Below, piece by piece: positions 44,048 to 59,078 of a stretch of 59,499 bases of DNA (its first letter is position 1; each line of letters opens with the position of its first letter). Source of the stretch: a virus (Duplodnaviria; Heunggongvirae; Uroviricota; Caudoviricetes); the IMG/VR virus record IMGVR_UViG_2874945390_000008; one strand, written 5' to 3'. A model generated the notes under the pieces. The model had not been told where the DNA came from. It saw only the letters and a list, made by a program, of their open reading frames with translations, and ran no database searches. The position numbers and the translations under genes were made by a program.

Positions 44048-44825
44048 ATGGCTTCAAACTGGATAAAGCTCGAGGTTATTACGCCGGATAAGCCGGAAAT
44101 ATTCAGGCTTGCTGAGATTCTGAATATTGATCCAGATGCCGCATTAGGGAAGGTTATTCGCTTCTGGGCATGGGCGGATCAACAAATGATAGACGGTAAT
44201 GCAGATTGTAACGCTCGCGGCGTTACAAAAAGTGCAATAGATCGCATCACTTTTATGTCTGGTTTTGCTGATGCGTTAATTCAGGTTGGATGGCTGGTCG
44301 AAAATGACGGTGGGCTTTCTCTACCTAACTTTGAACGTCATAACGGAAAAAGCTCTAAAAAAACGGGCGGTTACAAACGAGCGAGTAACAAAAATACGCG
44401 AACTGAAACGAAAAGGTAACGCGGCCAGCGTTACACAAACGGATCAAAAAGCGTTACCAGAGGAAGATCTAAATACTGATCTCCCCCTAAATCCCCCTCG
44501 CCAAAAACGAGCGTCTAAAAAATTCGAGCCGGAGGCTATTGAGCTGCCCGATTGGTTGCCGGAAACACTCTGGCATGAGTGGGTCCGGTTCAGACAGGCA
44601 TTGCGAAAACCGATTCGAACGGAGCAGGGCGCTAACGGGGCGATACGGGAACTGGAAAAATTCCGTCAGCAGGGTTTTACACCTGAGCAGGTGATTCGAC
44701 ACAGCATCGCCAATGAATACCAGGGCCTGTTCGCGCCGAAAGGTGTTCGGCCTGAGACGTTGCTCCGACAGGTTAACACCGTCTCGTTGCCGGACAGTGC
44801 GATCCCGCCAGGCTTCAGGGGGTAA
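44048..44825 (+). pseudogene. ydaU-like replication protein, frame broken at an A7 run
   Basis: ORFs 44048..44419 and 44286..44825 overlap in adjacent frames around ctaaaaaaacgg (about 44352). Confidence 0.45.
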
Positions 44826-44831
44826 CGGACC

Positions 44832-45578
44832 ATGAAAAATATTGCGACAGGCGGCGTTCTGGAACGCATCCGCCGACTGACCCCGCCACATGTAATCGCC
44901 CCATTCAGAACGGTAGCGGAGTGGTGCGAGTGGCAACTTGCTGAAGGCCAGAAACGTAGCGAGGAGATCAACCGCCTGAATCGCCAGTTGCGGGTGGAAA
45001 ATATTCTGAATCGCTCAGGCATCCAGCCGTTGCACCGTAAATGCTCGTTTGCGAATTACCAGGTGCAGAACGACGGCCAGCGATACGCGTTAAGCCAGGC
45101 GAAATCCATCGCCGATGAACTGATGACCGGGTGTACAAATTTTGCGTTCAGCGGAAAACCTGGTACCGGGAAGAATCACTTAGCGGCAGCTATCGGGAAT
45201 CGCCTGCTGAAAGACGGTCAGACAGTGAATGTGGTTACCGTGGCTGATGTTATGAGCGCCCTGCACGCCAGCTATGACGACGGGCAGTCAGGCGAAAAAT
45301 TTTTGCGGGAGCTGTGCGAAGTGGATCTGCTGGTTCTTGATGAAATTGGCATTCAGCGCGAGACGAAAAACGAGCAGGTGGTGCTGCACCAGATTGTTGA
45401 TCGCCGGACAGCGTCGATGCGCAGCGTGGGGATGCTGACAAACCTGAACTATGAGGTGATGAAAACATTGCTCGGCGAGCGGATTATGGATCGCATGACC
45501 ATGAACGGCGGGCGCTGGGTGAATTTTAACTGGGAGAGCTGGCGTCCGAATGTTAGCCATTCGAGGGTTGTTAAGTAG
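44832..45578 (+). CDS. DnaC-like helicase loader (Rac YdaV-like)
   Basis: Walker A GKPGTGKNHLAAAIG, Walker B LLVLDEIG; MKNIATGGVLERIRRL... Confidence 0.85.
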   Translation: MKNIATGGVLERIRRLTPPHVIAPFRTVAEWCEWQLAEGQKRSEEINRLNRQLRVENILNRSGIQPLHRKCSFANYQVQNDGQRYALSQAKSIADELMTGCTNFAFSGKPGTGKNHLAAAIGNRLLKDGQTVNVVTVADVMSALHASYDDGQSGEKFLRELCEVDLLVLDEIGIQRETKNEQVVLHQIVDRRTASMRSVGMLTNLNYEVMKTLLGERIMDRMTMNGGRWVNFNWESWRPNVSHSRVVK

Positions 45579-46511: not shown

Positions 46512-47812
46512 CTGAGGAATCCCCAGAAAACGAGACAGACATAGCATTATGTGATCTACTGATTTGTGCCAACAATTCAATGAGATCACTGCTATGCCTG
46601 TTCATAAAGTATGTCAGAATTTCTTCCGGGATGCCTTAGCACCATTTCATCAGTACCGACAAAATGCCCTGATGGATGCCACAGTGGCGTTAATCAACGG
46701 AGCATCTCTGACGCTGACCAGTATCGGACGTTTTTTGCCGGGTAATGCACAAGTTAAGAATAAGAGCAAACGTATTGATCGCCTCATGGGTAATGAGGCG
46801 CTCCATCGCGATATTCCAATGATTTTCAGGAATATCACTTCAATGCTGACACGGCAGTTATCTTTATGTGTAATAGCCGTAGACTGGAGTGGCTATCCCT
46901 CCCAGGAGCATCATGTTCTTCGTGCCAGCCTTCTGTGTGACGGGCGTTCCATTCCGTTATTGAGTAAGGTTGTTCCTTCTGAAAAACAAAATAATCCATT
47001 GATACAACATGATTTCCTTGATTCCCTTGCTCAATCCCTGCCCCCCGATGCCAGGGTTATTATTGTCACGGATGCTGGATTTCAGAGCGCATGGTTTCAC
47101 CATATTACTTCTCTGGGCTGGGATTTTATTGGTCGGATCAGAAATAACGTTCAGTATTGCCTCGATAACGCGCCTGAAAGATGGTTAAAAGTGTCGGATA
47201 GCCCTGAATGTAAAACACCGGAATATATGGGGGCTGGAAGGCTGGTTAAAGAAAGGAAAAAAAGCATCCGGGGGCATTTTTACACCTATAAGAAATCGGC
47301 AAAAGGGCGAAAAAAGAAACGTTCGAAAGGTCAGAGTGGTTTAAACAAAACAGACAAAGAACAGAGCAAATCAGCAAAAGAAGCCTGGTTGATCTTCAGC
47401 AGTACAAATGACTTCAGAGCGCGAGAAATCATCAAGTTATACAGTCGGCGAATGCAGATAGAGCAAAACTTTCGTGATGAAAAGAACGGGCGCTTCGGAT
47501 TTGGTCTTCGGGCCAGCAAAAGTCGTTCAACAGGAAGAATTCTGGTTCTGAGTCTGCTGGCAACGTTGAGCACTATCGTAATGTGGTTACTCGGTTATCA
47601 CGCTGAAAATAAAGGGTTACACCTGAAATATCAGGCTAACAGCATTAAATCCCGGCGGGTTATCTCATATCTGACGTTAGCGAAGAATGTTCTTCGACAC
47701 TCGCCACTTATTTTAAGACGAACAGTACTGAGCACAGTTCTAAACCATCTGTCCAGAACCTACCGAAATATGGTGCTGGTTTATTAGCAGTAATTTTGTG
47801 GGGATCCCTCAG
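46512..47812 (+). mobile_element. IS10-like element (IS4 family), copy B, intact
   Basis: 1301 bp; same ends as copy A; single 407-aa transposase ORF. Confidence 0.85.
46564..47787 (+). CDS. IS4-family (IS10-group) transposase
   Basis: MCQQFNEITAMPVHKVCQNFFRDALAPFHQYRQ...VTDAGFQSAW...YSRRMQIEQNFRDEK... Confidence 0.8.
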   Translation: MCQQFNEITAMPVHKVCQNFFRDALAPFHQYRQNALMDATVALINGASLTLTSIGRFLPGNAQVKNKSKRIDRLMGNEALHRDIPMIFRNITSMLTRQLSLCVIAVDWSGYPSQEHHVLRASLLCDGRSIPLLSKVVPSEKQNNPLIQHDFLDSLAQSLPPDARVIIVTDAGFQSAWFHHITSLGWDFIGRIRNNVQYCLDNAPERWLKVSDSPECKTPEYMGAGRLVKERKKSIRGHFYTYKKSAKGRKKKRSKGQSGLNKTDKEQSKSAKEAWLIFSSTNDFRAREIIKLYSRRMQIEQNFRDEKNGRFGFGLRASKSRSTGRILVLSLLATLSTIVMWLLGYHAENKGLHLKYQANSIKSRRVISYLTLAKNVLRHSPLILRRTVLSTVLNHLSRTYRNMVLVY

Positions 47813-49363: not shown

Positions 49364-50516
49364 AATAGCTGCGCTTAATACCGCTACACTTTTGCCAGTC
49401 CATGTTTGCCTCCGGGGAATGGGCTGACGGTTTCCATAAAATGGCGAACTTTTTTCAACAGTTGCCACATTGAGCGGCACTGATGATTACGCGTTATTGT
49501 GTCGTGAAGTGCCTGCCATAGCCGTTCAACATGATTCACCCATGGCGAGTAAACCGGCTGATAAATGACCCTGAACTTCGGGTTCTCCTTCAGCCAGCTC
49601 TGTGTTTCCCGGCTTTTGTGGATAATGTAGTTGTCCACGATCAGCGTGATGGTTTTCGCCCGACGGTATGTCGCTTTAAGCCGCTTCAGCAGGCTGATGA
49701 ACAGCGCCGAACTTTTGCTGTTGCCGCCCACATAGCTGACTTTACCTGTCCCGCTGTGCAGCGCTCCGGCCAGATAATATTTTTCATTCTGTCCCGGCGT
49801 GACCACCCGTTTTTGCTGTCCGCGCAGTTGCCAGTCCGCACCGATTTTGGGATGAAGATGGATATCCACTTCATCTTCATAAAAGACCGGATGCTCTGCG
49901 CTGCATTCGTCCAGTGCTTTATGGATTGCTGCCATCTTTTCATCTTTATGCGGGTCACGGATACGCAGAGTTGGCGCAGCCCTTCGCCACACAATCCCCG
50001 CAGACGGCAACCAGCGGCGAACGGTTCCGGCATTTAACTGGCAACCGGTTATCTCATTGATTTTTATTGCCAGCAGTTCTGTACTCCAGCGTGAACGCTG
50101 GTAGCCAAAGTCGCCGGGAGAATGTTTTACCAGCTCACGTAACAGTGTGCAGATATGCTCAAACGGCCAGCGACGGGCACGCCCGGCAGGTAATGATTTC
50201 AGTCCCTCAACACCCGACTGCGTGAACCAGTTAATCCAGCGTCCAACAGAGGAACGGGCGCAGCAGAGCGTTCTGGCAACGTCGCTGACACGGTCGCCCC
50301 GGTGCAGCATCAGCATGGCAGTCAGTCTGCGGGCATAATTTTTATCGTGTGTTTTATGGATGGCTTTCTGCATCAGGCGTCGTTCGTCACGGGAAATTGG
50401 TGCTATGATCGGCATTGCTCAGTCCGGTTGGTGATTTGTTTTGATTTGGCGATTGATCAGATCGCACAATCCGGGCTAAGTTCCCTCAAAGTGATCTACT
50501 ATTCCGCGCAGCTATT
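49364..50516 (-). mobile_element. IS630 (1153 bp)
   Basis: Terminal inverted repeats aatagctgcgc / gcgcagctatt; TA duplication in a CTAG context (49362..49363 and 50517..50518). Confidence 0.85.
49384..50415 (-). CDS. IS630-family transposase
   Basis: 343-aa ORF MPIIAPISRDERRLMQKAIHKTHDKNYARRLTAMLMLHRGDRVSDVAR... Confidence 0.85.
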   Translation of the reverse strand: MPIIAPISRDERRLMQKAIHKTHDKNYARRLTAMLMLHRGDRVSDVARTLCCARSSVGRWINWFTQSGVEGLKSLPAGRARRWPFEHICTLLRELVKHSPGDFGYQRSRWSTELLAIKINEITGCQLNAGTVRRWLPSAGIVWRRAAPTLRIRDPHKDEKMAAIHKALDECSAEHPVFYEDEVDIHLHPKIGADWQLRGQQKRVVTPGQNEKYYLAGALHSGTGKVSYVGGNSKSSALFISLLKRLKATYRRAKTITLIVDNYIIHKSRETQSWLKENPKFRVIYQPVYSPWVNHVERLWQALHDTITRNHQCRSMWQLLKKVRHFMETVSPFPGGKHGLAKV

Positions 50517-50779: not shown

Positions 50780-50835
50780 TGTGAAGTACCAGTTGGCGGC
50801 ATCGGTTTAATTGCTGGCTGATGTCCGCCCTTTTT
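50780..50835 (+). ncRNA. dicF: DicF-like small RNA (candidate)
   Basis: ...agttGGCGGcatcggtttaattgctggctgatgtCCGCCcttttt resembles my recollection of DicF; lies downstream of dicA-ydfA-ydfB as in Qin. Confidence 0.4.
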
Positions 50836-51105
50836 AAAGTGAATTTTGTGATGCGGTGAATGCGGCTCAGCGCACGCGGAACAGTTAAAACAGTAAGGAA
50901 AATCCCTTATTCCGGCGTTAATTATTAACTGGTTAACGTCACCTGGAGGCACCAGGCACCGCATCAACAAAGTTCACTTCGGTGATGAAAGGAAAGAGAA
51001 AATGTTGAATGTAGCTATTGAAAACCAGAACGGGTGGAATTATAGTGCACCTGCACCTCATAAAACGGGTGCCGGGATTGCTACCCCGAAGTCATTCACG
51101 GCGCA

Positions 51106-51128
51106 TAACCGCGCTCAGGCGGTTTTTT
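51106..51128 (+). terminator. Hairpin plus T7 terminator upstream of the Rha-like gene
   Basis: aaccgcgctcaggcggttttttta. Confidence 0.5.
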
Positions 51129-51295
51129 TATGCGTAATGCACAGCCACATTCAAATTATGGTGGGGCGTGCGGGGCAGTCGCAAGACTGGCCGGGTTCCG
51201 TGATGACCGGTTGTAGCAACCCTGTACGTCTCACCACCCATGAGATTGCTACCTCCGGTGGTGAGTTAATCACATTCATCGCGGAGGCTGCCATC

Positions 51296-51844
51296 ATGGC
51301 TACTACCCTTTCTCACCCTTGTGTAACCGTAGAAAACGGTCGCGCTGTCACTACGTCTGTTGCGGTTGCAGAGTTCTTCCACAAACGACACGACAATGTG
51401 TTACGTGCCATCGCAAATATTGAATGCTCAGATAAATTTACTGCCCTCAATTTTGAGGCGAGCGAATACACCGACTCAACCGGGCGCAAACTCCCAATGT
51501 ACCAAATCACCAAAAACGGCTTCGTTTTCCTGGTGATGGGCTTCACTGGCAAAAAAGCCGCCGCATTCAAGGAAGCCTACATTGCTGAGTTCGACCGCAT
51601 GGAGGCCGAACTGCGCCAGAATAACACCCCACCTGCTGACAAGATGATTCCGGGTGATGGTCGCACTCTGGTTGTTCACTTCGACAAATTCGGCAATGTC
51701 GAATTCACCGAAACCGTTCCTGATGGCGCACTGGTCTGTACCCTGGAGACTTTCCGGTTTTATCTGGAAAAACAGGGATGGACTCTTGTTAACCGGGGCG
51801 CAATTAAAAATATGACTGTGGAACAATTACTTTCTTTAAAATAA
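51296..51844 (+). CDS. Rha-family phage regulatory protein
   Basis: ...TTSVAVAEFFHKRHDNVLRAIANIECSDKFTALNF...; start at ATG 51296 after GGAGG; track ORF extends upstream across the terminator. Confidence 0.65.
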   Translation: MATTLSHPCVTVENGRAVTTSVAVAEFFHKRHDNVLRAIANIECSDKFTALNFEASEYTDSTGRKLPMYQITKNGFVFLVMGFTGKKAAAFKEAYIAEFDRMEAELRQNNTPPADKMIPGDGRTLVVHFDKFGNVEFTETVPDGALVCTLETFRFYLEKQGWTLVNRGAIKNMTVEQLLSLK

Positions 51845-51860
51845 AAATGGAGCTACGGAT

Positions 51861-52142
51861 ATGAACCCTATGCTTGATTATTGTTTTACCTCTGCACCTC
51901 AGCAGACCATAACACACACCGGAATCAAAAAATTGTTATGGATAATCAAAAAAACCCTCCAGCAGAAAGGTGATCCCGATTTAATTCCCTGTGCTTATGG
52001 CCTGTGTGACAGACAAGTAAGCCCTGATAAGGCTTACTCTGCTGAACTTATTTACATGCACGGAACCATGATGAGGAAAAAGAAACGCAAATATTGTAGT
52101 GAAATCTGTGCCGAAAAAGACCAGATGGCACACGAACTTTAA
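51861..52142 (+). CDS. Hypothetical Cys-containing small protein
   Basis: 93-aa ORF with CAYGLC...YCSEIC pattern. Confidence 0.4.
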   Translation: MNPMLDYCFTSAPQQTITHTGIKKLLWIIKKTLQQKGDPDLIPCAYGLCDRQVSPDKAYSAELIYMHGTMMRKKKRKYCSEICAEKDQMAHEL

Positions 52143-52216
52143 TTAACTGACTATTCGAAACTGAATTTATGCCAGCAATGGCAGGGATTCACTCAACCTT
52201 AAAAAAGGAAACAGCA

Positions 52217-52513
52217 ATGAGTATTATTGAATGTGAAATTGAACTTGATGTTATTAACGATTCTCTCGCCGAATTTAAATGTGGGAATACATTACATAGT
52301 TTCATTCAGATTTCCCAAAAAGAAAACGTCACGGTAATTATTGATGGCTGTTACGTTCTGAGAACATTTGATTGTTGTGTATGTGCCATTAAAGAAATTG
52401 CATTACTCACAGCTCGCATTGAAGAGGCTGACAAGAAATACGGTATCAGTTATCAACGACTGAAAGAACTCTCTCATATCGCATCATCAGTTCGTTTCTT
52501 TTATGCAATCTGA
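52217..52513 (+). CDS. Hypothetical AT-rich small protein
   Basis: MSIIECEIELDVINDSLAEFKCGN...; start after AAGGAA. Confidence 0.4.
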   Translation: MSIIECEIELDVINDSLAEFKCGNTLHSFIQISQKENVTVIIDGCYVLRTFDCCVCAIKEIALLTARIEEADKKYGISYQRLKELSHIASSVRFFYAI

Positions 52514-52536
52514 ATATGAGTTGAGGTTAAAAAACA

Positions 52537-54477
52537 ATGAGCACCGATAAACAAGTTTACCCACTGTATTACGAAGCAAAAAATGACAAAGTAAGAAAAC
52601 GCCTCGGTATTAAAGGCGGTTTTTACTGGGCTGAAGCGAAAAAATTATCCATTGCCATCTCCCGTGGTGCTGTTGCGATTGACGATGCAGGCTACGATGA
52701 AGATGACTTTAAAAAACCTGTTCACGTCAATTTGCCCGTTGTTGATGACCTCCCGCCAGAAGGCGTGTTTGATACGGAATTCTGCAACCGTTACGAAAAA
52801 GGCGGGGAAGATGGCATCACAATGGTATTTATCGCATCTTCTCCCTCTGTTCAGGACAAACCAGCCAGCACTGACAATACCAACGTCAACGGCGAAGACA
52901 TGACAGAAATTGAGGAGAACATGCTCCTGCCAGTTTCCGGTCAGGAACTGCCCATTCGCTGGCTTGCTCAACACGGCAGCGAAAAACCGGTAACGCACGT
53001 TTCACGCGACGGACTCCAGGCATTACACATTGCTCGGGCTGAAGAACTACCGGCTGTTACTGCCCTGGCTGTTTCCCACAAAACCAGCCTGCTCGACCCG
53101 CTGGAAATTCGCGATCTCCACAAACTGGTTCGTGACACTGACAAAGTTTTCCCTAATCCTGGTAATTCAAGCCTGGGACTGATAACTGCTTTTTTCGAAG
53201 CATACCTGAACGCTGACTACACCGATCGAGGACTGCTGACAAAAGAGTGGATGAAGGGTAATCGTGTTTCACACATCACTCGCACGGCTTCCGGTGCTAA
53301 TGCTGGCGGCGGAAACCTCACCGATCGCGGCGAAGGTTTCGTACACGATCTGACGTCACTGGCGCGCGACGTAGCCACTGGCGTACTGGCCCGTTCAATG
53401 GATCTGGACATCTATAACCTTCATCCGGCACACGCTAAACGCATTGAGGAAATTATCGCTGAAAATAAACCGCCCTTTTCTGTTTTCCGCGACAAATTCA
53501 TCACCATGCCTGGCGGGCTGGATTATTCCCGCGCCATCGTGGTTGCGTCCGTAAAAGAAGCACCAATTGGGATCGAGGTCATCCCCGCGCACGTCACTGA
53601 ATATCTGAACAAGGTACTGACTGAAACCGATCATGCCAACCCTGATCCGGAAATCGTGGATATTGCCTGCGGTCGCTCCTCTGCCCCGATGCCGCAGCGT
53701 GTAACAGAAGAAGGAAAACAGGATGATGAAGAAAAACCGCAACCATCTTGCGCAATGGCAGATGAACAGGCAACGGCTGAAACAGTGGAACCGGATGCAA
53801 CTGAACATCATCAGGACACGCAGCCGCTGGATGCTCAGTCACAGGTAAATGCTGTTGATGCGAAATATCAGGAACTGCGGGCAGAACTCCATGAAGCCCG
53901 GAAAAACATTCCGCCCAAAAATCCTGTCGATGCAGACAAATTACTGGCTGCCTCTCGCGGAGAATTTGTTGAAGGGATTAGCGACCCGAATGATCCGAAA
54001 TGGATTCCCGGTCATCATATCTCCTCAAATGAAGTCAAAAAAACGGAAAATGAAGTGCGACAGACTGAAGATAAACAGCACCAGAACAGCGAACCGGAGG
54101 AGGGAACACCCTGCAATCAGACTGGCGAGGATAACTGCCCTGACTGTGGCGCGGTGATGGGAGACGCAACTTATCAGGAAACTTTTGACGAAAAAAAACC
54201 AGATGAAGCACAGGAAGAAGAGCCGAAGAAAACGGAAAAAGCTGATGATTTGTTACCGGAGAACGCTGGCAGCGATCAGCATAATGATAGCAATAATGAA
54301 ACTGGCGAAGATGAACTCAACTGGAAAAAACAGGTGTTGATTGCGGCGGTTTACGGTTTATGTGCGAATCCTGCGTGCATAGCCTATGCGCCTGCAATCC
54401 CTGACATCGCAATGATGATTGCCAACAAGCTTGAAAATTTTGGAGTGACCAGTGATGAGCGCTTACCCGATTTTTGA
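52537..54477 (+). CDS. Large hypothetical protein (646 aa) with acidic C-terminal region
   Basis: Uninterrupted ORF; no family recognised from memory. Confidence 0.5.
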
Positions 54478-54751
54478 TCGTATTGAAGAAATGGCATGGG
54501 CTCGCCACTACCAGCAGATCGTTCGTGAAGAAAAAGAAACGGAACTGGCGGACGACCTGGAAAAAGGTCTGCCTCAGCACCTGTTTGAATCGCTCTGCAT
54601 CGACCATTTGCAACGCCACGGTGCCAATAAACAGGCAATCAGCCACGCATTTGATGATGATGTTGAGTTTCAGGAGCGCATGGCAGAACACATCCGGTAC
54701 ATGGCTGAAACCATTGCCCACCACCAGGTTGATATTGATTTGGAGGACTAA
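54455..54751 (+). CDS. Hypothetical protein (98 aa)
   Basis: ATG overlaps the upstream gene's 3' end. Confidence 0.4.
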
Positions 54752-55566
54752 AATCTATGGCGCTTTTTCAACGAGCAATAAACACACAGGCCTATCTAAA
54801 AGCAGGAATTATGGGGTTTGCTGGCGACGGCAAAACCTACACAGCAAGCGAACTGGCTATTGGTCTGGTAATGCTTATGCGGCAACGGGGAATTGAAGCT
54901 GGTAACCGCCCGGTAATGTTTCTGGACACAGAAACAGGCTCTGACTGGGTTAAACCCCGCTTTGATGCGGAAAATATCGAATTATTTACGGCAAAAACCC
55001 GCTCGTTTGTTGATCTGCTTGAAGCCATTAATGAAGCGGAAAGCAGCGGTTCCGTAATGATCATCGACTCCATCAGTCACTTCTGGACCGGATTATGCGA
55101 CGAGTATGCCAGACGCCGAAACCGTAAACGAGGACTGGAATTTTCAGACTGGGCGTGGCTCAAACAGGAGTGGCGACGCTTTACCGATCGATTTGTTAAC
55201 AGTCAGGCGCACATTATTATGTGCGGGCGTGCAGGATATGAGTATGACTTTTTCGAAGGTGATGATGGCAAACGCCAGTTGGCAAAAACCGGTATAAAAA
55301 TGAAAGCAGAAACAGAAACCGGTTATGAACCCTCCATCCTGATCCAGATGGAGAAGCAAATGAACATAGAAACCGGTCAGGTGTGGCGCACCGCCAGAAT
55401 ACTAAAAGATCGCTCCACCCGTATTGATGGACAGGTATTTTCAAACCCAACATTTAAAAACTTTCTTCCTCATATCGAGTTTCTTAACCTGGGAGGTGAA
55501 CACCTCGGCATCGATACCTCACGGGATAACAGTGAATTATTTGCCAACGACGGTACACCGACATGG

Positions 55567-56816
55567 TGAGGTGTACTGGCAATAGCGGACACTACCATTT
55601 GTTCTTTTTTTAAGCAGCCATCTGATGATATTTTTCCCTGAAGGCTGCCGGGGAGATATTCCCCAGACGAGAGTGACGACGCTGACGATTGTAGAAAATC
55701 TCAATGTATTCCCGTATTACTGAGATGGCTTCATCCCGGTTATTAAAACGATAGTGGCTCAGGCTCTCATTTTTCAGCGTTCCCCAGAAGCTTTCCATCG
55801 GAGCGTTGTCGTAACAGTTACCTTTACGCGACATTGATGTTTTCAGACCAAACTGCTCCTGTATGACCCGGTAATCGTATGCGCAGTACTGTGAACCTCG
55901 ATCAGAGTGGTGGATTAGCCCGGCAGGTGGGCGCTGGCTCCTGAGCGCCATAAACAGGGCTTTACCTGTCAGCTCTTTTGTCATGCGCTCTCCCATGGCG
56001 TAGCCGACAATTTCGCACGTATAAACATCTTTGATGCCAGCGAGGTACAACCATCCCTCCTGTGTGGCAACATACGTCAGGTCCGCCACCCAGACCTGAT
56101 TTGGTGCTGTAGGAGCGAACGTCTGGTTCAGCAGATTTGGCGCAACTGGCAGATTGTGGTTCGGGTTCGTAGTCGCTCTGAACTTGCGTTTCTGCTTACA
56201 GCGTAGCCTTAGCTCCTTACGAAGACGTGCCAGTCGGTCACGACCAACGATGATGCCATTCTCTGCCAGCTCCGTCTGGAGCCGCCGGGTTCCATATGTT
56301 TCGCGAGTGCGGATATGTGCCACCTTAATCTCCAGTTTTAGCCGCTCATCACTTTGTTTTCTGTCTGAGGGTTCATGCTGTACCCAGTTGTAATAACCGC
56401 TCCTGGATACACCAAATACCTGACACATCGCTTCAATGGGAAATTGTTGTCGCCATTGTTCGATTAACGCGTATTTTTCAGCGACTCCTGTGCAAAATTT
56501 TAATATATCTCGCTCAAGGCGAGCTTCATTTAACGCCTTACGCAGTTGCAGAATTTCAGATTCCAGTTCAGCCACCGTGCGGGAACCAGGAGTACCGAGC
56601 CCTTTTCTGGCGGCGGTAACCCATTGTCCTAAAGTGCCTTCAGGAAGGAATAATCGGGAAGCGCCTTCACTGATCGAAAGTTGATTTTCAAGAACCGTTC
56701 TGACAGCTTCGGCTTTGAACTCTTTAGAGTAACGTTGGGTTTTTCTGCTCATTATTAGCTCCTTCTGATGCCATTCTATTTCAGGAAGGAGTGTCCGTTA
56801 AACTCAGGCTACCTCA
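55567..56816 (-). mobile_element. IS600-like copy 3 (1250-bp variant)
   Basis: Same ends; 3-bp direct repeat TGG (55564..55566 and 56817..56819). Confidence 0.88.
55610..56752 (-). CDS. IS600 OrfAB in-frame fused transposase (380 aa)
   Basis: Single ORF MSRKTQRYSKEFK...RDILKFCTGVAEKY...; the frameshift window is removed by a 14-bp deletion relative to copy 2. Confidence 0.8.
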   Translation of the reverse strand: MSRKTQRYSKEFKAEAVRTVLENQLSISEGASRLFLPEGTLGQWVTAARKGLGTPGSRTVAELESEILQLRKALNEARLERDILKFCTGVAEKYALIEQWRQQFPIEAMCQVFGVSRSGYYNWVQHEPSDRKQSDERLKLEIKVAHIRTRETYGTRRLQTELAENGIIVGRDRLARLRKELRLRCKQKRKFRATTNPNHNLPVAPNLLNQTFAPTAPNQVWVADLTYVATQEGWLYLAGIKDVYTCEIVGYAMGERMTKELTGKALFMALRSQRPPAGLIHHSDRGSQYCAYDYRVIQEQFGLKTSMSRKGNCYDNAPMESFWGTLKNESLSHYRFNNRDEAISVIREYIEIFYNRQRRHSRLGNISPAAFREKYHQMAA

Positions 56817-57146
56817 TGGCTAAAAGAAAAGCGTGCAAAAGAAATCGCACTTGATGAAATTATCGAGTTGCTCAACAAGCACCATGGGGGCACCAGTAAC
56901 GACGCCAAACGCGCAAAAGCTGATTTGCTGGAAAAAACATTCACCTCCCGCTCATGGGAAAGAATCAAAGGTATGGACTGGCCGACAATCAAAGCTGGTC
57001 GTAATGCACTATGGATTGAACTGGAAGGCGTTGAATATGCATTCCCGGATCCACAAACACAAAACGAAACGCAACAAGCAGGATACGATGAGAATATTCC
57101 GGTGTAAAACCAAGTGCATTTTGGGAAAATATTAATGGAGGTGTTC

Positions 57147-57335
57147 ATGTATAAAATTACAGCCACTATTGAAAAGGAAGGTGGTTCTCCTGCCAGCTGG
57201 ACAAGATACTCAAAGACAAAACTAACGAAATCAGAATGCGAAAAAATGCTCTCAGGGGAAAAAGAAGCAGGCGTTTCCAGAGAGCAGAAAGTAAAACTGA
57301 TAAATTTTAATTGCGAGAAACTTCAGTCCTCGTGA
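57147..57335 (+). CDS. Hypothetical small protein
   Basis: MYKITATIEKEGGSPASWTRYSK...; ATG after GGAGG. Confidence 0.35.
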   Translation: MYKITATIEKEGGSPASWTRYSKTKLTKSECEKMLSGEKEAGVSREQKVKLINFNCEKLQSS

Positions 57336-57435
57336 ATTTCATTATATCCAGATTAGAACTTCATAGCTGATTATTAAAAATCAACCACACCCGCCAGTAT
57401 TCTGTATATTTACTGGCGGTCATATCGTGAGAGGT

Positions 57436-57723
57436 ATGGCAATGAATCTTGTGACACTCAAAACGTGGGGAAAACTCAGATATCCGGATACCCCACCATC
57501 AATATCAACGCTGAGACGATGGGCAAGGAATGGAAACATTTATCCTGCACCTGAACTACACGGGAGGAGTTACAGGGTGGTTCCGGAGGCTTTCTATATC
57601 AACCCAAATAAGGTTGATACCGATATAACACACCATCAGCCTAATGGGCGACAAGGGAGAGACAGTCCGTTAATGGAGAAGTTAAAACATGCAGCGGAAA
57701 AAATACGATCCCAATTTGCCTAG
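57436..57723 (+). CDS. xis: Excisionase-like protein
   Basis: ...ISTLRRWARNGNIYPAPELHGRSYRVVPEAFYI...; immediately upstream of and overlapping int. Confidence 0.6.
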   Translation: MAMNLVTLKTWGKLRYPDTPPSISTLRRWARNGNIYPAPELHGRSYRVVPEAFYINPNKVDTDITHHQPNGRQGRDSPLMEKLKHAAEKIRSQFA

Positions 57724-58765
57724 AAACTTAACATATCGAAGGAGAGACAAAGCATATTACTGGCGCAACCCTCTGACGAAAGAAGAATTTACACTAGGTA
57801 AAATTTCAAGAAGAGATGCAGTAGCGCAGGCAATTGAAGCAAATCATTATATATACAAAAACTACTCTCCTGCTGCCCTAATTGAAAAGCTTAAAGGGGT
57901 CGACTCATTTACTATGGCAGACTGGATTGAACGTTACAAAACGATTCTTATAAGGAGAAAAGCGTCCAGAAATACTTATAAAACTCGGGTAAATCAACTG
58001 GAGACAATAAAAGAAAAATTAGGAGGGGTTTTACTGACAGAAATAACCACTCGCCATATCGCCGAGTTTCTTGATTTGTGGATTGAAGGAGGGAAAAACA
58101 CGATGGCAGGATCAATGCGTTCTGTGTTATCTGATATGTTCCGCGAAGCCATTGTTGAAGGACGTATATCTCAAAATCCAGTAACGCCAACAAGAGCACC
58201 GAAAATAGTAGTTACAAGAGAACGGCTGAAACTAAAGACATACAACTGCATCAGGGAGGCAGCAGATCAACTTCCGGCATGGTTCCCATTAGCTATGGAC
58301 TTAGCCCTTGTAACAGGACAACGTCGCGAAGACATAACGAATATGCGGTTCAGTGATATTTATGATGATCGTCTCCACATCAGGCAAATTAAGACAGGAA
58401 TGATGATTGCTATCCCCCTGTCACTCAGCCTTCCTGTCGCTGGTTTACGACTTGGTGCAGTAGTTAAACAGTGCCGCATGGTAAGTAGGGGGGATTATCT
58501 AATCAGTGCCGGGATTAGAAAAAACAGCCCTGACGGCAGCATTCACCCGGACGGCCTGACAAAGAAATTTGTCGCAGCCAGAAAATTAACAGGTATCCTG
58601 TTCAGTGAAAACCCACCAACTTTTCACGAAATCAGAAGCCTGGCTGGACGATTGTACAAAGAAATATGTGGAGAAGAATTTGCTCAGCGTCTACTTGGCC
58701 ACACATCGGAGAAGACAACAAAAATGTATCTTGATGAGAGAGAAAAAACGTACTTACTGCTCTGA
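57689..58765 (+). CDS. int: Tyrosine integrase (lambda Int-like)
   Basis: ...[10 protein letters not shown]...[15 protein letters not shown]...[17 protein letters not shown]... Confidence 0.9.
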
Positions 58766-58896
58766 TTTTAACGTAAATGGATTGTTAAATGTATTTTGGT
58801 TGTGATATAACCAAAAAAGACCGGAATACAGAAATTCGAGTAAATTTCGGGGAATTTCGGGGAAGCATTTGTAACTAATTGATTTCAAATGCAATT

Positions 58897-58999
58897 AAAA
58901 AAAGACCGAATACGATTCCTGTATTCGGTCCAGGGAAATGGCTCTTGGGAGAGAGCCGTGCGCTAAAAGTTGGCATTAATGCAGGCTTAGTTGCCTTGC
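58897..58999 (-). ncRNA. sdsR: SdsR/RyeB-like small RNA
   Basis: Minus strand GCAAGGCAACTAAGCCTGCATTAATGCC...CCCTGGACCGAATACAGGAATCGTATTCGGTCTTTTTTT as I recall SdsR; terminal hairpin plus T-run. Confidence 0.55.
58904..58929. other. Putative attR core overlapping the sdsR 3' hairpin
   Basis: Direct imperfect repeat of 376..401; tandem aatttcgggg motif at 58845..58864 between int and the core. Confidence 0.4.
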
Positions 59000-59078
59000 C
59001 CTTTAAGAATAGATGACGACGCCAGGTTTTCCAGTTTGCGTGCAAAATGGTCAATAAAAAGCGCGGTGGTCATCAGCT

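Follow-up and report, generated by a model that had tools for sequence, protein, structure and literature searches.

A probable mosaic Rac/lambda recombination module that combines gam with a nuclease-less RecE-family gene

The closest described counterparts of the locus reported here, four consecutive open reading frames (ORFs) at positions 51,861–54,751 of a 59,499-nt stretch of viral DNA (Caudoviricetes; IMG/VR record IMGVR_UViG_2874945390_000008; the whole stretch is referred to below as the window), lie in the early-left operons of phage lambda and the Rac prophage. In lambda, dimers of the Gam protein occupy the DNA-entry site of RecBCD and shield linear phage DNA ends; gam is flanked by kil and by bet, which fills the annealing-protein slot. 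Phage HK620 encodes Sak4 (HkaL), a strand-annealing protein of the Rad51/RecA family. In Rac, the uncharacterised 56-aa YdaE is encoded upstream of recE, and RecE itself is an 866-aa protein that ends in a PD-(D/E)XK nuclease domain. The N-terminal domain of RecE has no known function, and basic RecET recombination does not require it (PMC11611040, PMC11610958), and the nuclease domain by itself genetically replaces the whole protein (PMC11611040); according to the recombineering literature, full-length RecE improves linear-linear recombination. Zheng et al. 2025 (PMC12315714) mention ‘RecE-2’ proteins that have no nuclease domain and whose role is unknown, and list DnaQ-like nucleases in lambdoid Rec modules. 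A literature search found no functional studies on YdaE, RacC or YdfE.

We conclude that the interval very probably forms the recombination end of an early-left operon of mosaic Rac/lambda type, in which Gam stands beside a nuclease-less RecE-family protein that may serve as an acidic adaptor. The feature is already known in kind, as an ordinary mosaic Rec module, and annotations of Shigella and E. coli genomes already include identical proteins, among them a 646-aa protein that is 100% identical to the one in the window.

The RecE-family gene and gam

A first-pass annotation, made from the sequence without database searches, had described an operon of four unrecognised genes between a Rha-like regulator and an ATPase gene disrupted by an insertion sequence (IS). 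That description holds for the four ORFs (93, 98, 646 and 98 aa; Table 1) and for both flanks, and the spacing agrees with one co-oriented early-left unit that extends from the Rha-type regulator to xis and int: 16 nt separate the Rha ORF from ORF1, 74 nt ORF1 from ORF2 and 23 nt ORF2 from the 646-aa ORF, which overlaps ORF4 by 23 nt, and 5 nt separate ORF4 from the ATPase gene. The complete order is isrK/C4, Rha-type regulator, a YdaE-family zinc-ribbon-like gene, a gene of the phrog_2434 family, the nuclease-less RecE-family gene, gam, an AAA_24 (Sak4-like) ATPase gene split by IS600, a DUF1187 gene, xis and int. Each preferred start has a GGAG, GAGG or AGGA motif 6–11 nt 5′ of it, no Shine-Dalgarno-like motif precedes the alternative 114-aa start of ORF2 (52169), and no terminator-like site was found on the plus strand within the interval. 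As had been noted, the two small upstream ORFs are AT-rich (GC content 0.41 and 0.35, against 0.48 for the window). The first-pass annotation had allowed that the ORFs might be untranslated; compared with diverged homologues, by the ratio of nonsynonymous to synonymous substitution rates (dN/dS) or, for ORF2, by the protein identity retained, all four instead behave as real coding sequence.

The match of the 646-aa protein to the RecE/exonuclease VIII family spans residues 1–591. The protein scored 1070 bits against NCBIfam model NF007259 (RecE; positions 1–596 of 877), which is below the equivalog cut-off of 1269, and gave E values of 6.2e-38 against PF06630, the exonuclease VIII N-region, and 2.7e-240 against phrog_607 (positions 1–622 of 883). 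Neither a Pfam scan nor the database record of the protein includes a match to PF12684, the PD-(D/E)XK nuclease. Aligned with Rac-type RecE, residues ~114–489 are ~95% identical, and the acidic sequence beyond them is divergent but homologous up to residue ~590; past that point the 260-residue PD-(D/E)XK domain (RecE residues ~600–866) has been exchanged for a 55-residue tail. The protein thus shares with Rac RecE the folded N-region, the acidic linkers, a DPNDPKW motif and an early-left operon position after a ydaE-type gene, and differs from it in lacking the nuclease domain and a downstream recT and in carrying a conserved helical tail instead. Directly after canonical recE, recT is present in four of the comparison loci, which we cite by number (L002, L005, L006 and L008), whereas gam and the AAA_24 ATPase gene take this place immediately 3′ of the 646-aa gene, where recT is absent. 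We conclude from these alignments that the 646-aa protein belongs to the RecE family through its N-terminal part only and lacks any recognisable nuclease domain.

Relatives of the protein are few, only 221 in an exhaustive search of 1.84 billion representatives, and another profile homologue search returned only near-identical Salmonella Gifsy proteins. Using precomputed Pfam assignments, we sorted the close relatives into three architectures: the N-region with a PF12684 nuclease (866–892 aa, canonical exonuclease VIII), the N-region with a PF16473 DnaQ-like 3′-5′ exonuclease (~814 aa), and the N-region with the tail (646–671 aa). Representatives at 50% identity, tagged for domains locally with phmmer, fell into the same three architectures. 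The 646-aa gene is best placed, by its sequence, in the tail class, which is YdfE-like or ‘RecE-2’-like.

AlphaFold2, run on an 85-sequence alignment, predicted a folded N-region with a predicted local distance difference test (pLDDT) score mostly >90, followed by acidic linkers around a central element that comprises a short conserved helix (aa 439–473) and then the DPNDPKW motif (aa 483–489). In Foldseek searches of the model neither the PDB (best E value 0.6) nor BFVD (best 0.037) gave a significant match, and there was no nuclease-like match. The predicted isoelectric point (pI) is 4.67. The first-pass annotation had pointed to a long acidic, low-complexity C-terminal half; this is borne out for residues 391–440 and 491–595, which are 28–29% Asp plus Glu and modelled at pLDDT <50, but not for the last ~55 residues, which make up the conserved helical tail. 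Values of dN/dS are ~0.1 in the folded parts, 0.04–0.11 in aa 441–489 and 0.45–1.6 in the acidic linkers. A degenerate Cys motif (TPC...CPDCG) in the linker is without the first Cys of the CxxC...CxxC motif of the family; that motif lies within the disordered region and is missing from Gifsy- and Klebsiella-type RecE.

ORF4 matches PF06064 nearly end to end (8.1e-56; 186.8 bits, cut-off 25; profile positions 1–97 of 98) and the solved Gam structures PDB 5MBV and 2UUZ (2.5e-50), and it falls in phrog_259, whose PHROG category is ‘moron, auxiliary metabolic gene and host takeover’. ORF4 DNA is 88% identical to lambda gam, with a dN/dS of 0.10–0.14, and its product has the same length as lambda Gam (GamS, 98 aa). 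We therefore assign ORF4, on homology, as a predicted lambda-type Gam, an inhibitor of RecBCD. As in lambda, the early-left operon has gam just upstream of its annealing-protein slot, and the same gam slot precedes bet-exo in L001 and L004; unlike in lambda, its upstream neighbour is the RecE-family gene rather than kil, and its downstream neighbour is the AAA_24 ATPase gene rather than bet.

ORF1 was matched by NCBIfam model NF041288 (YdaE) over aa 42–93 (1.5e-24, 85.8 bits, cut-off 35) and by phrog_6751 (3e-46), and the database record of an identical protein carries PF27493 (YdaE). The four-Cys pattern seen in the first-pass annotation belongs to this protein: C44, C49, C79 and C83 (CxxxxC...CxxxC) are invariant among YdaE homologues. 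ORF1 has a dN/dS of ~0.15 and encodes a four-Cys protein of the YdaE family. Its C-terminal 52 residues are 59% identical to Rac YdaE, including the four Cys residues, and the gene occupies the same place upstream of a recE-type gene; unlike Rac YdaE, ORF1 has a 40-residue N-terminal extension, which it shares with a homologue in an E. coli prophage (71% full-length identity).

ORF2 belongs to phrog_2434 (9e-39), a family without an assigned function, and its homologues form only 16 clusters among 5.8 billion proteins. Some of these clusters are named “DNA breaking-rejoining protein”, a name that is unsupported. Protein identity of 32–38% to homologues has been kept although synonymous sites are saturated. 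An AlphaFold2 model (12-sequence alignment) had a mean pLDDT of 47, too low for a fold search. ORF2 sits in the position of racC, and a BLAST feature label suggested RacC itself; we rejected this identification, given 16% identity, an hhalign probability of 0.1% and a label that fell between two BLAST pieces. In L021, an ORF2 homologue (29% identical; hhalign probability 97%; phrog_2434 at 6.6e-20) lies upstream of a tail-class gene whose product is 25% identical to the 646-aa protein. Of 29 distant viral loci, 8 have a member of the ORF2 family directly upstream of the tail-class gene; with the pair in L021, this makes the ORF2 family a recurrent companion of the tail-class gene family.

The first-pass annotation had considered the four genes accessory, with anti-restriction, exclusion or host-takeover functions that could not be assigned. 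We regard this explanation as unlikely, though it has the best standing among the alternatives. It fits the early-left position, the host-takeover category of Gam and the acidity of the 646-aa protein, which would suit a DNA mimic, and no activity is known for ORF2, YdaE or the RecE N-region. However, Pfam, NCBIfam and PHROGs recognise Gam, the RecE-family protein and YdaE, so that three of the four genes are confidently assigned. Two of them, Gam and the RecE-family protein, belong to recombination-module families, and it was homology to recombination proteins that the first-pass annotation itself had set against its proposal. Host takeover survives in the sense that this Gam would inhibit RecBCD, whereas anti-restriction and exclusion are unsupported (PADLOC gave no hits), and the acidic stretches are fast-evolving disordered linkers rather than a structured mimic.

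The conserved C-terminal tail

The tail of the 646-aa protein aligns with 22 representative tails, with invariant columns A10, A11, G14, C16, N18 and P19, and is described by the motif L-[TS]-[YFW]-x-QQLTIAALQGLCANPA-x6-[DE][DE][IL]PxMAxxLA. The motif is always at the very C-terminal end, including in members that are otherwise only ~22% identical. Approximately 22 diverged representative clusters end in the tail, and a motif scan of IMG/VR recovered 80 viral loci, which we divided into close loci, with a tail at least 74% identical to that of the window (L023–L072), and 29 distant loci. A tblastn search of the tail against phages found nothing, probably owing to low-complexity masking; a DNA search and the motif scan succeeded. 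Pfam, PHROGs and a PDB profile search yielded no independent family for the tail. AlphaFold2 placed helices at residues 591–610, 612–616 and 624–634, at pLDDT 62–70.

The 646-aa ORF might alternatively be a decayed recE pseudogene, left after the 3′ end of recE gave way to gam and its neighbours. Consistent with this, the annotation pipeline PGAP calls the RecE-like gene in CFSAN029787 ‘incomplete; missing C-terminus’, RecE homology ends near residue 590, and frameshifted copies occur in a few viral loci. However, the tail is under purifying selection (dN/dS of 0.16–0.23 at dS 0.6–1.25), and the motif is C-terminal throughout the ~22 diverged clusters. Most of the 80 viral loci have intact tail-class ORFs of 491–824 aa, and PGAP annotates a 657-aa relative as intact. 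Given the conservation of the tail and its dN/dS, we conclude that the 646-aa gene is not a truncated pseudogene, an explanation to which we give very little weight.

We considered whether the tail is a C-terminal membrane anchor, as in a membrane-tethered exclusion or DNA-tethering factor. The tail of the window protein reaches a Kyte-Doolittle maximum of 1.72 over 19 residues, but it is an outlier: the median maximum over 21 diverse tails is 1.04, only 2 of the 21 reach 1.6, and the motif has conserved Q, N, P and D/E residues. We rejected the anchor on this family-wide hydrophobicity and consider it just as improbable as decay. Least credible of all is an active exodeoxyribonuclease VIII, which the database names ‘exodeoxyribonuclease VIII’ and ‘RecE family exodeoxyribonuclease’ would imply for a protein with no match to the nuclease domain.

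The last residues of the 646-aa protein (54457–54477), ...TSDERLPDF, have an acidic-hydrophobic-Pro-x-Phe pattern reminiscent of the DDDIPF tail of E. coli single-stranded DNA-binding protein (SSB). An ending of the form DE[RH][LIM]P[DN]F is limited to an E. coli/Shigella subclade; versions in Shiga toxin (Stx) phages end in GGDKS, and the distant ones vary. SSB-tail mimicry as a family-wide mechanism was rejected, since the ...P[DN]F ending is found in one subclade only, and it stands as a lead.

Surroundings of the module

The early-left module is damaged in the window, by IS600 within the ATPase gene and an IS630-family element upstream, and the four ORFs are intact (Table 1). The ATPase gene lies in the position of lambda bet. 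Its product matches PF13479 (3.7e-14), its best family is phrog_1366 (1e-79), and an intact 365-aa copy is present in L003; no PDB relative was found by sequence. Like HK620 Sak4, the ATPase has an AAA_24 P-loop domain and is encoded in the slot for the single-strand annealing protein (SSAP) after gam; unlike it, the ATPase is a 365-aa protein with a C-terminal extension, a weak match to the Sak4 PHROG and a gene split by IS600. We tentatively propose it as the SSAP of the module. IS600, which carries a single fused 380-aa transposase ORF, splits the gene after codon ~270.

Table 1 Features of the early-left region (positions in the window)
Feature	Position	Strand	Details
Rha/antirepressor-type regulator ORF	51002-51844	+	280 aa; PF09669, 3.4e-32 on aa 117-201
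isrK	51053-51129	+	Rfam 64.8 bits, above gathering score; inside 5′ third of Rha ORF
C4 antisense RNA	51154-51241	+	Rfam 79 bits, above gathering score; inside 5′ third of Rha ORF
ORF1 (YdaE family)	51861-52142	+	93 aa; ATG start
ORF2 (phrog_2434)	52217-52513	+	98 aa; longest version, from 52169, 114 aa
646-aa RecE-family gene	52537-54477	+	646 aa
Folded acidic N-region	52537-53706	+	aa 1-390; pLDDT mostly >90; predicted small alpha/beta domain, then helical domain
Acidic linkers and central motif	53707-54306	+	aa 391-437 and 496-590, predicted disordered, around conserved helical motif aa 439-489
Conserved tail	54307-54477	+	aa 591-646; replaces nuclease domain; predicted helical part ~45 residues
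ORF4 (gam)	54455-54751	+	98 aa; GTG at ...52 gives 99 aa
AAA_24 ATPase, 5′ part	54757-55566	+	~270 codons of 365-aa protein
IS600 (IS3 family)	55567-56816	-	3-bp TGG duplication; junctions against intact L003; transposase domains; PGAP naming in relatives
ATPase, 3′ remnant	56817-57107	+	96% identical to L003 10643-11296; translation continues intact protein
DUF1187, then excisionase, tyrosine integrase	57114-58765	+	PF06688, PF07825; integrase domains on record for identical layout in L013
RalA antitoxin small RNA	57153-57331	-	full-length, 207 bits (gathering score 170); antisense to DUF1187 ORF

Upstream, the isrK/C4/Rha region resembles a Gifsy-1/P1-type isrK/C4-antirepressor module. The best sigma-70-like site of the region (51018–51046) lies just upstream of isrK, at whose end there is a terminator-like hairpin (51107–51124). 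The true start of the Rha protein may be Met99 (51296), and transcription from the isrK-associated promoter could supply the four ORFs without pL. At 50780–50971 (+), upstream of the Rha module, DicF (28.6 bits against a gathering score of 48) and STnc100 (33.5 bits against 47) matched below threshold, and a terminator-like hairpin is present at 50798–50825; a Qin-type dicF region may have left these traces. The IS630-family element (49384–50415) separates the immunity region from the Rha module, with an IS4-like DDE_Tnp_1 transposase further left (46564–47787). A DnaC/IstB-like replication gene (44286–45578, +) shares its strand with the early-left operon, whereas the replication genes of the intact relatives L003 and L011 are divergent from that operon; this points to an inversion or rearrangement of the prophage in association with IS elements.

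Downstream, RalA is an orphan type I antitoxin: tblastn found no RalR toxin gene anywhere in the window, and in a related E. coli prophage (L004) ralR lies just upstream of DUF1187. The small RNA genes SraC/RyeA (+) and SdsR/RyeB (-) are at 58893–59037, ~130 nt past the integrase stop, with yebY beyond. They adjoin int, and the prophage therefore sits at the bidirectional ryeA/ryeB locus.

A possible acidic adaptor and its relatives

The identical 646-aa allele is found with the same neighbours at three prophage integration sites: gyrA-yfaA, yebY and ttcA. The tail-class genes of Shigella Stx phage 75/02 and of an E. coli prophage (IGC_RcoliRes) directly precede gam, as in the window, and are followed there by gam-bet-exo. 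Of the 80 IMG/VR loci, the close ones have gam-bet-exo downstream in ~43 cases and gam-AAA_24 in six. By contrast, gam, SSAP and nuclease genes are absent downstream in all 29 distant loci; here, the tail-class genes run directly into small ORFs, DUF1187, xis and int. Five further contexts of distant representatives showed the same pattern, again with no gam, SSAP or nuclease downstream. A small DUF7740 ORF follows the tail-class gene in the distant lambdoid prophages L010 (3025–3126), L017 (6817–7071; phrog_11217) and L021 (6919–7122), and takes the gam slot; it overlaps the tail-class gene by 4–8 nt in L010 and L021 and is one ORF further down in L017.

RecE-type N-regions with no nuclease domain are also seen in ‘RecE-2’ (PMC12315714), in the 682-aa ‘exodeoxyribonuclease VIII’ of 75/02, and in proteins with YdfE_N and YdfE_C. 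The 75/02 and YdfE-type proteins share with the 646-aa protein the tail motif and the early-left position, and ‘RecE-2’ may include this tail class. The window protein is much nearer to Rac RecE in its N-region than are the distant YdfE-type members (22–40% identity). It differs from the other nuclease-less relatives in its ...DERLPDF ending, and in that its gene is paired with gam and an AAA_24 ATPase gene rather than with gam-bet-exo or with no Rec genes.

We propose that, on induction, the operon would be transcribed rightward towards xis and int. By analogy with lambda Gam, the ORF4 product would block the DNA-entry site of RecBCD and so shield the ends of linear phage DNA. The ATPase, where its gene is intact, might supply the strand-annealing or recombinase step, although this is weakly supported. 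YdaE and the phrog_2434 product would be accessory proteins. The 646-aa protein would be a non-catalytic, strongly acidic adaptor: its tail would take the place of the nuclease module, serving for docking or oligomerisation, and its folded N-region would most likely contact another protein and not DNA. Members of the family share an acidic N-region (median pI 5.1, with 54 of 57 below 6), which argues for protein binding and against direct DNA binding. The partner would more likely be a conserved host protein or the phrog_2434 product than Gam or the ATPase, because distant tail-class homologues have no SSAP, nuclease or gam in their operon.

Several points weigh against this interpretation of the module. 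The adaptor role is drawn from architecture, charge and context, and we hold it with low confidence. The tail has been modelled only at the pLDDT given above, and PGAP, as noted, lists the gene as a pseudogene in CFSAN029787. YdfE_N (PF27430) and YdfE_C (PF27432) are on record for four distant tail-class proteins (P0346, P0319, P0373 and P0322), whereas the records of the window protein, P0294 and P0342 list only PF06630. For the ATPase as SSAP, the match to phrog_124 (‘Sak4-like’) is only 1e-8, and phrog_1366 has no assigned function.

A broader and decidedly more doubtful proposal is that, in lambdoid phages of Enterobacterales, the RecE N-region is an autonomous acidic module with an interchangeable effector: a 5′-3′ PD-(D/E)XK nuclease, a 3′-5′ DnaQ-like exonuclease or the tail. 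The tail class would then have a function of its own, often together with phrog_2434, and would need no phage nuclease, annealing protein or Gam. If this is true, the tail class may capture a conserved host replication, repair or defence protein, and in its subclade the ...DERLPDF ending might additionally recruit host enzymes that interact with SSB.

For annotation, the recombination-module interpretation means that the 646-aa gene should be called neither “exodeoxyribonuclease VIII” nor a pseudogene, contrary to the databases, and that the interval is to be read as a standard mosaic Rec module and not as a set of orphan genes. For the family, the tail class would represent a natural, nuclease-free form of the RecE N-region, present in many phages without a Rec partner, and it may offer a clean route to the function of that region.

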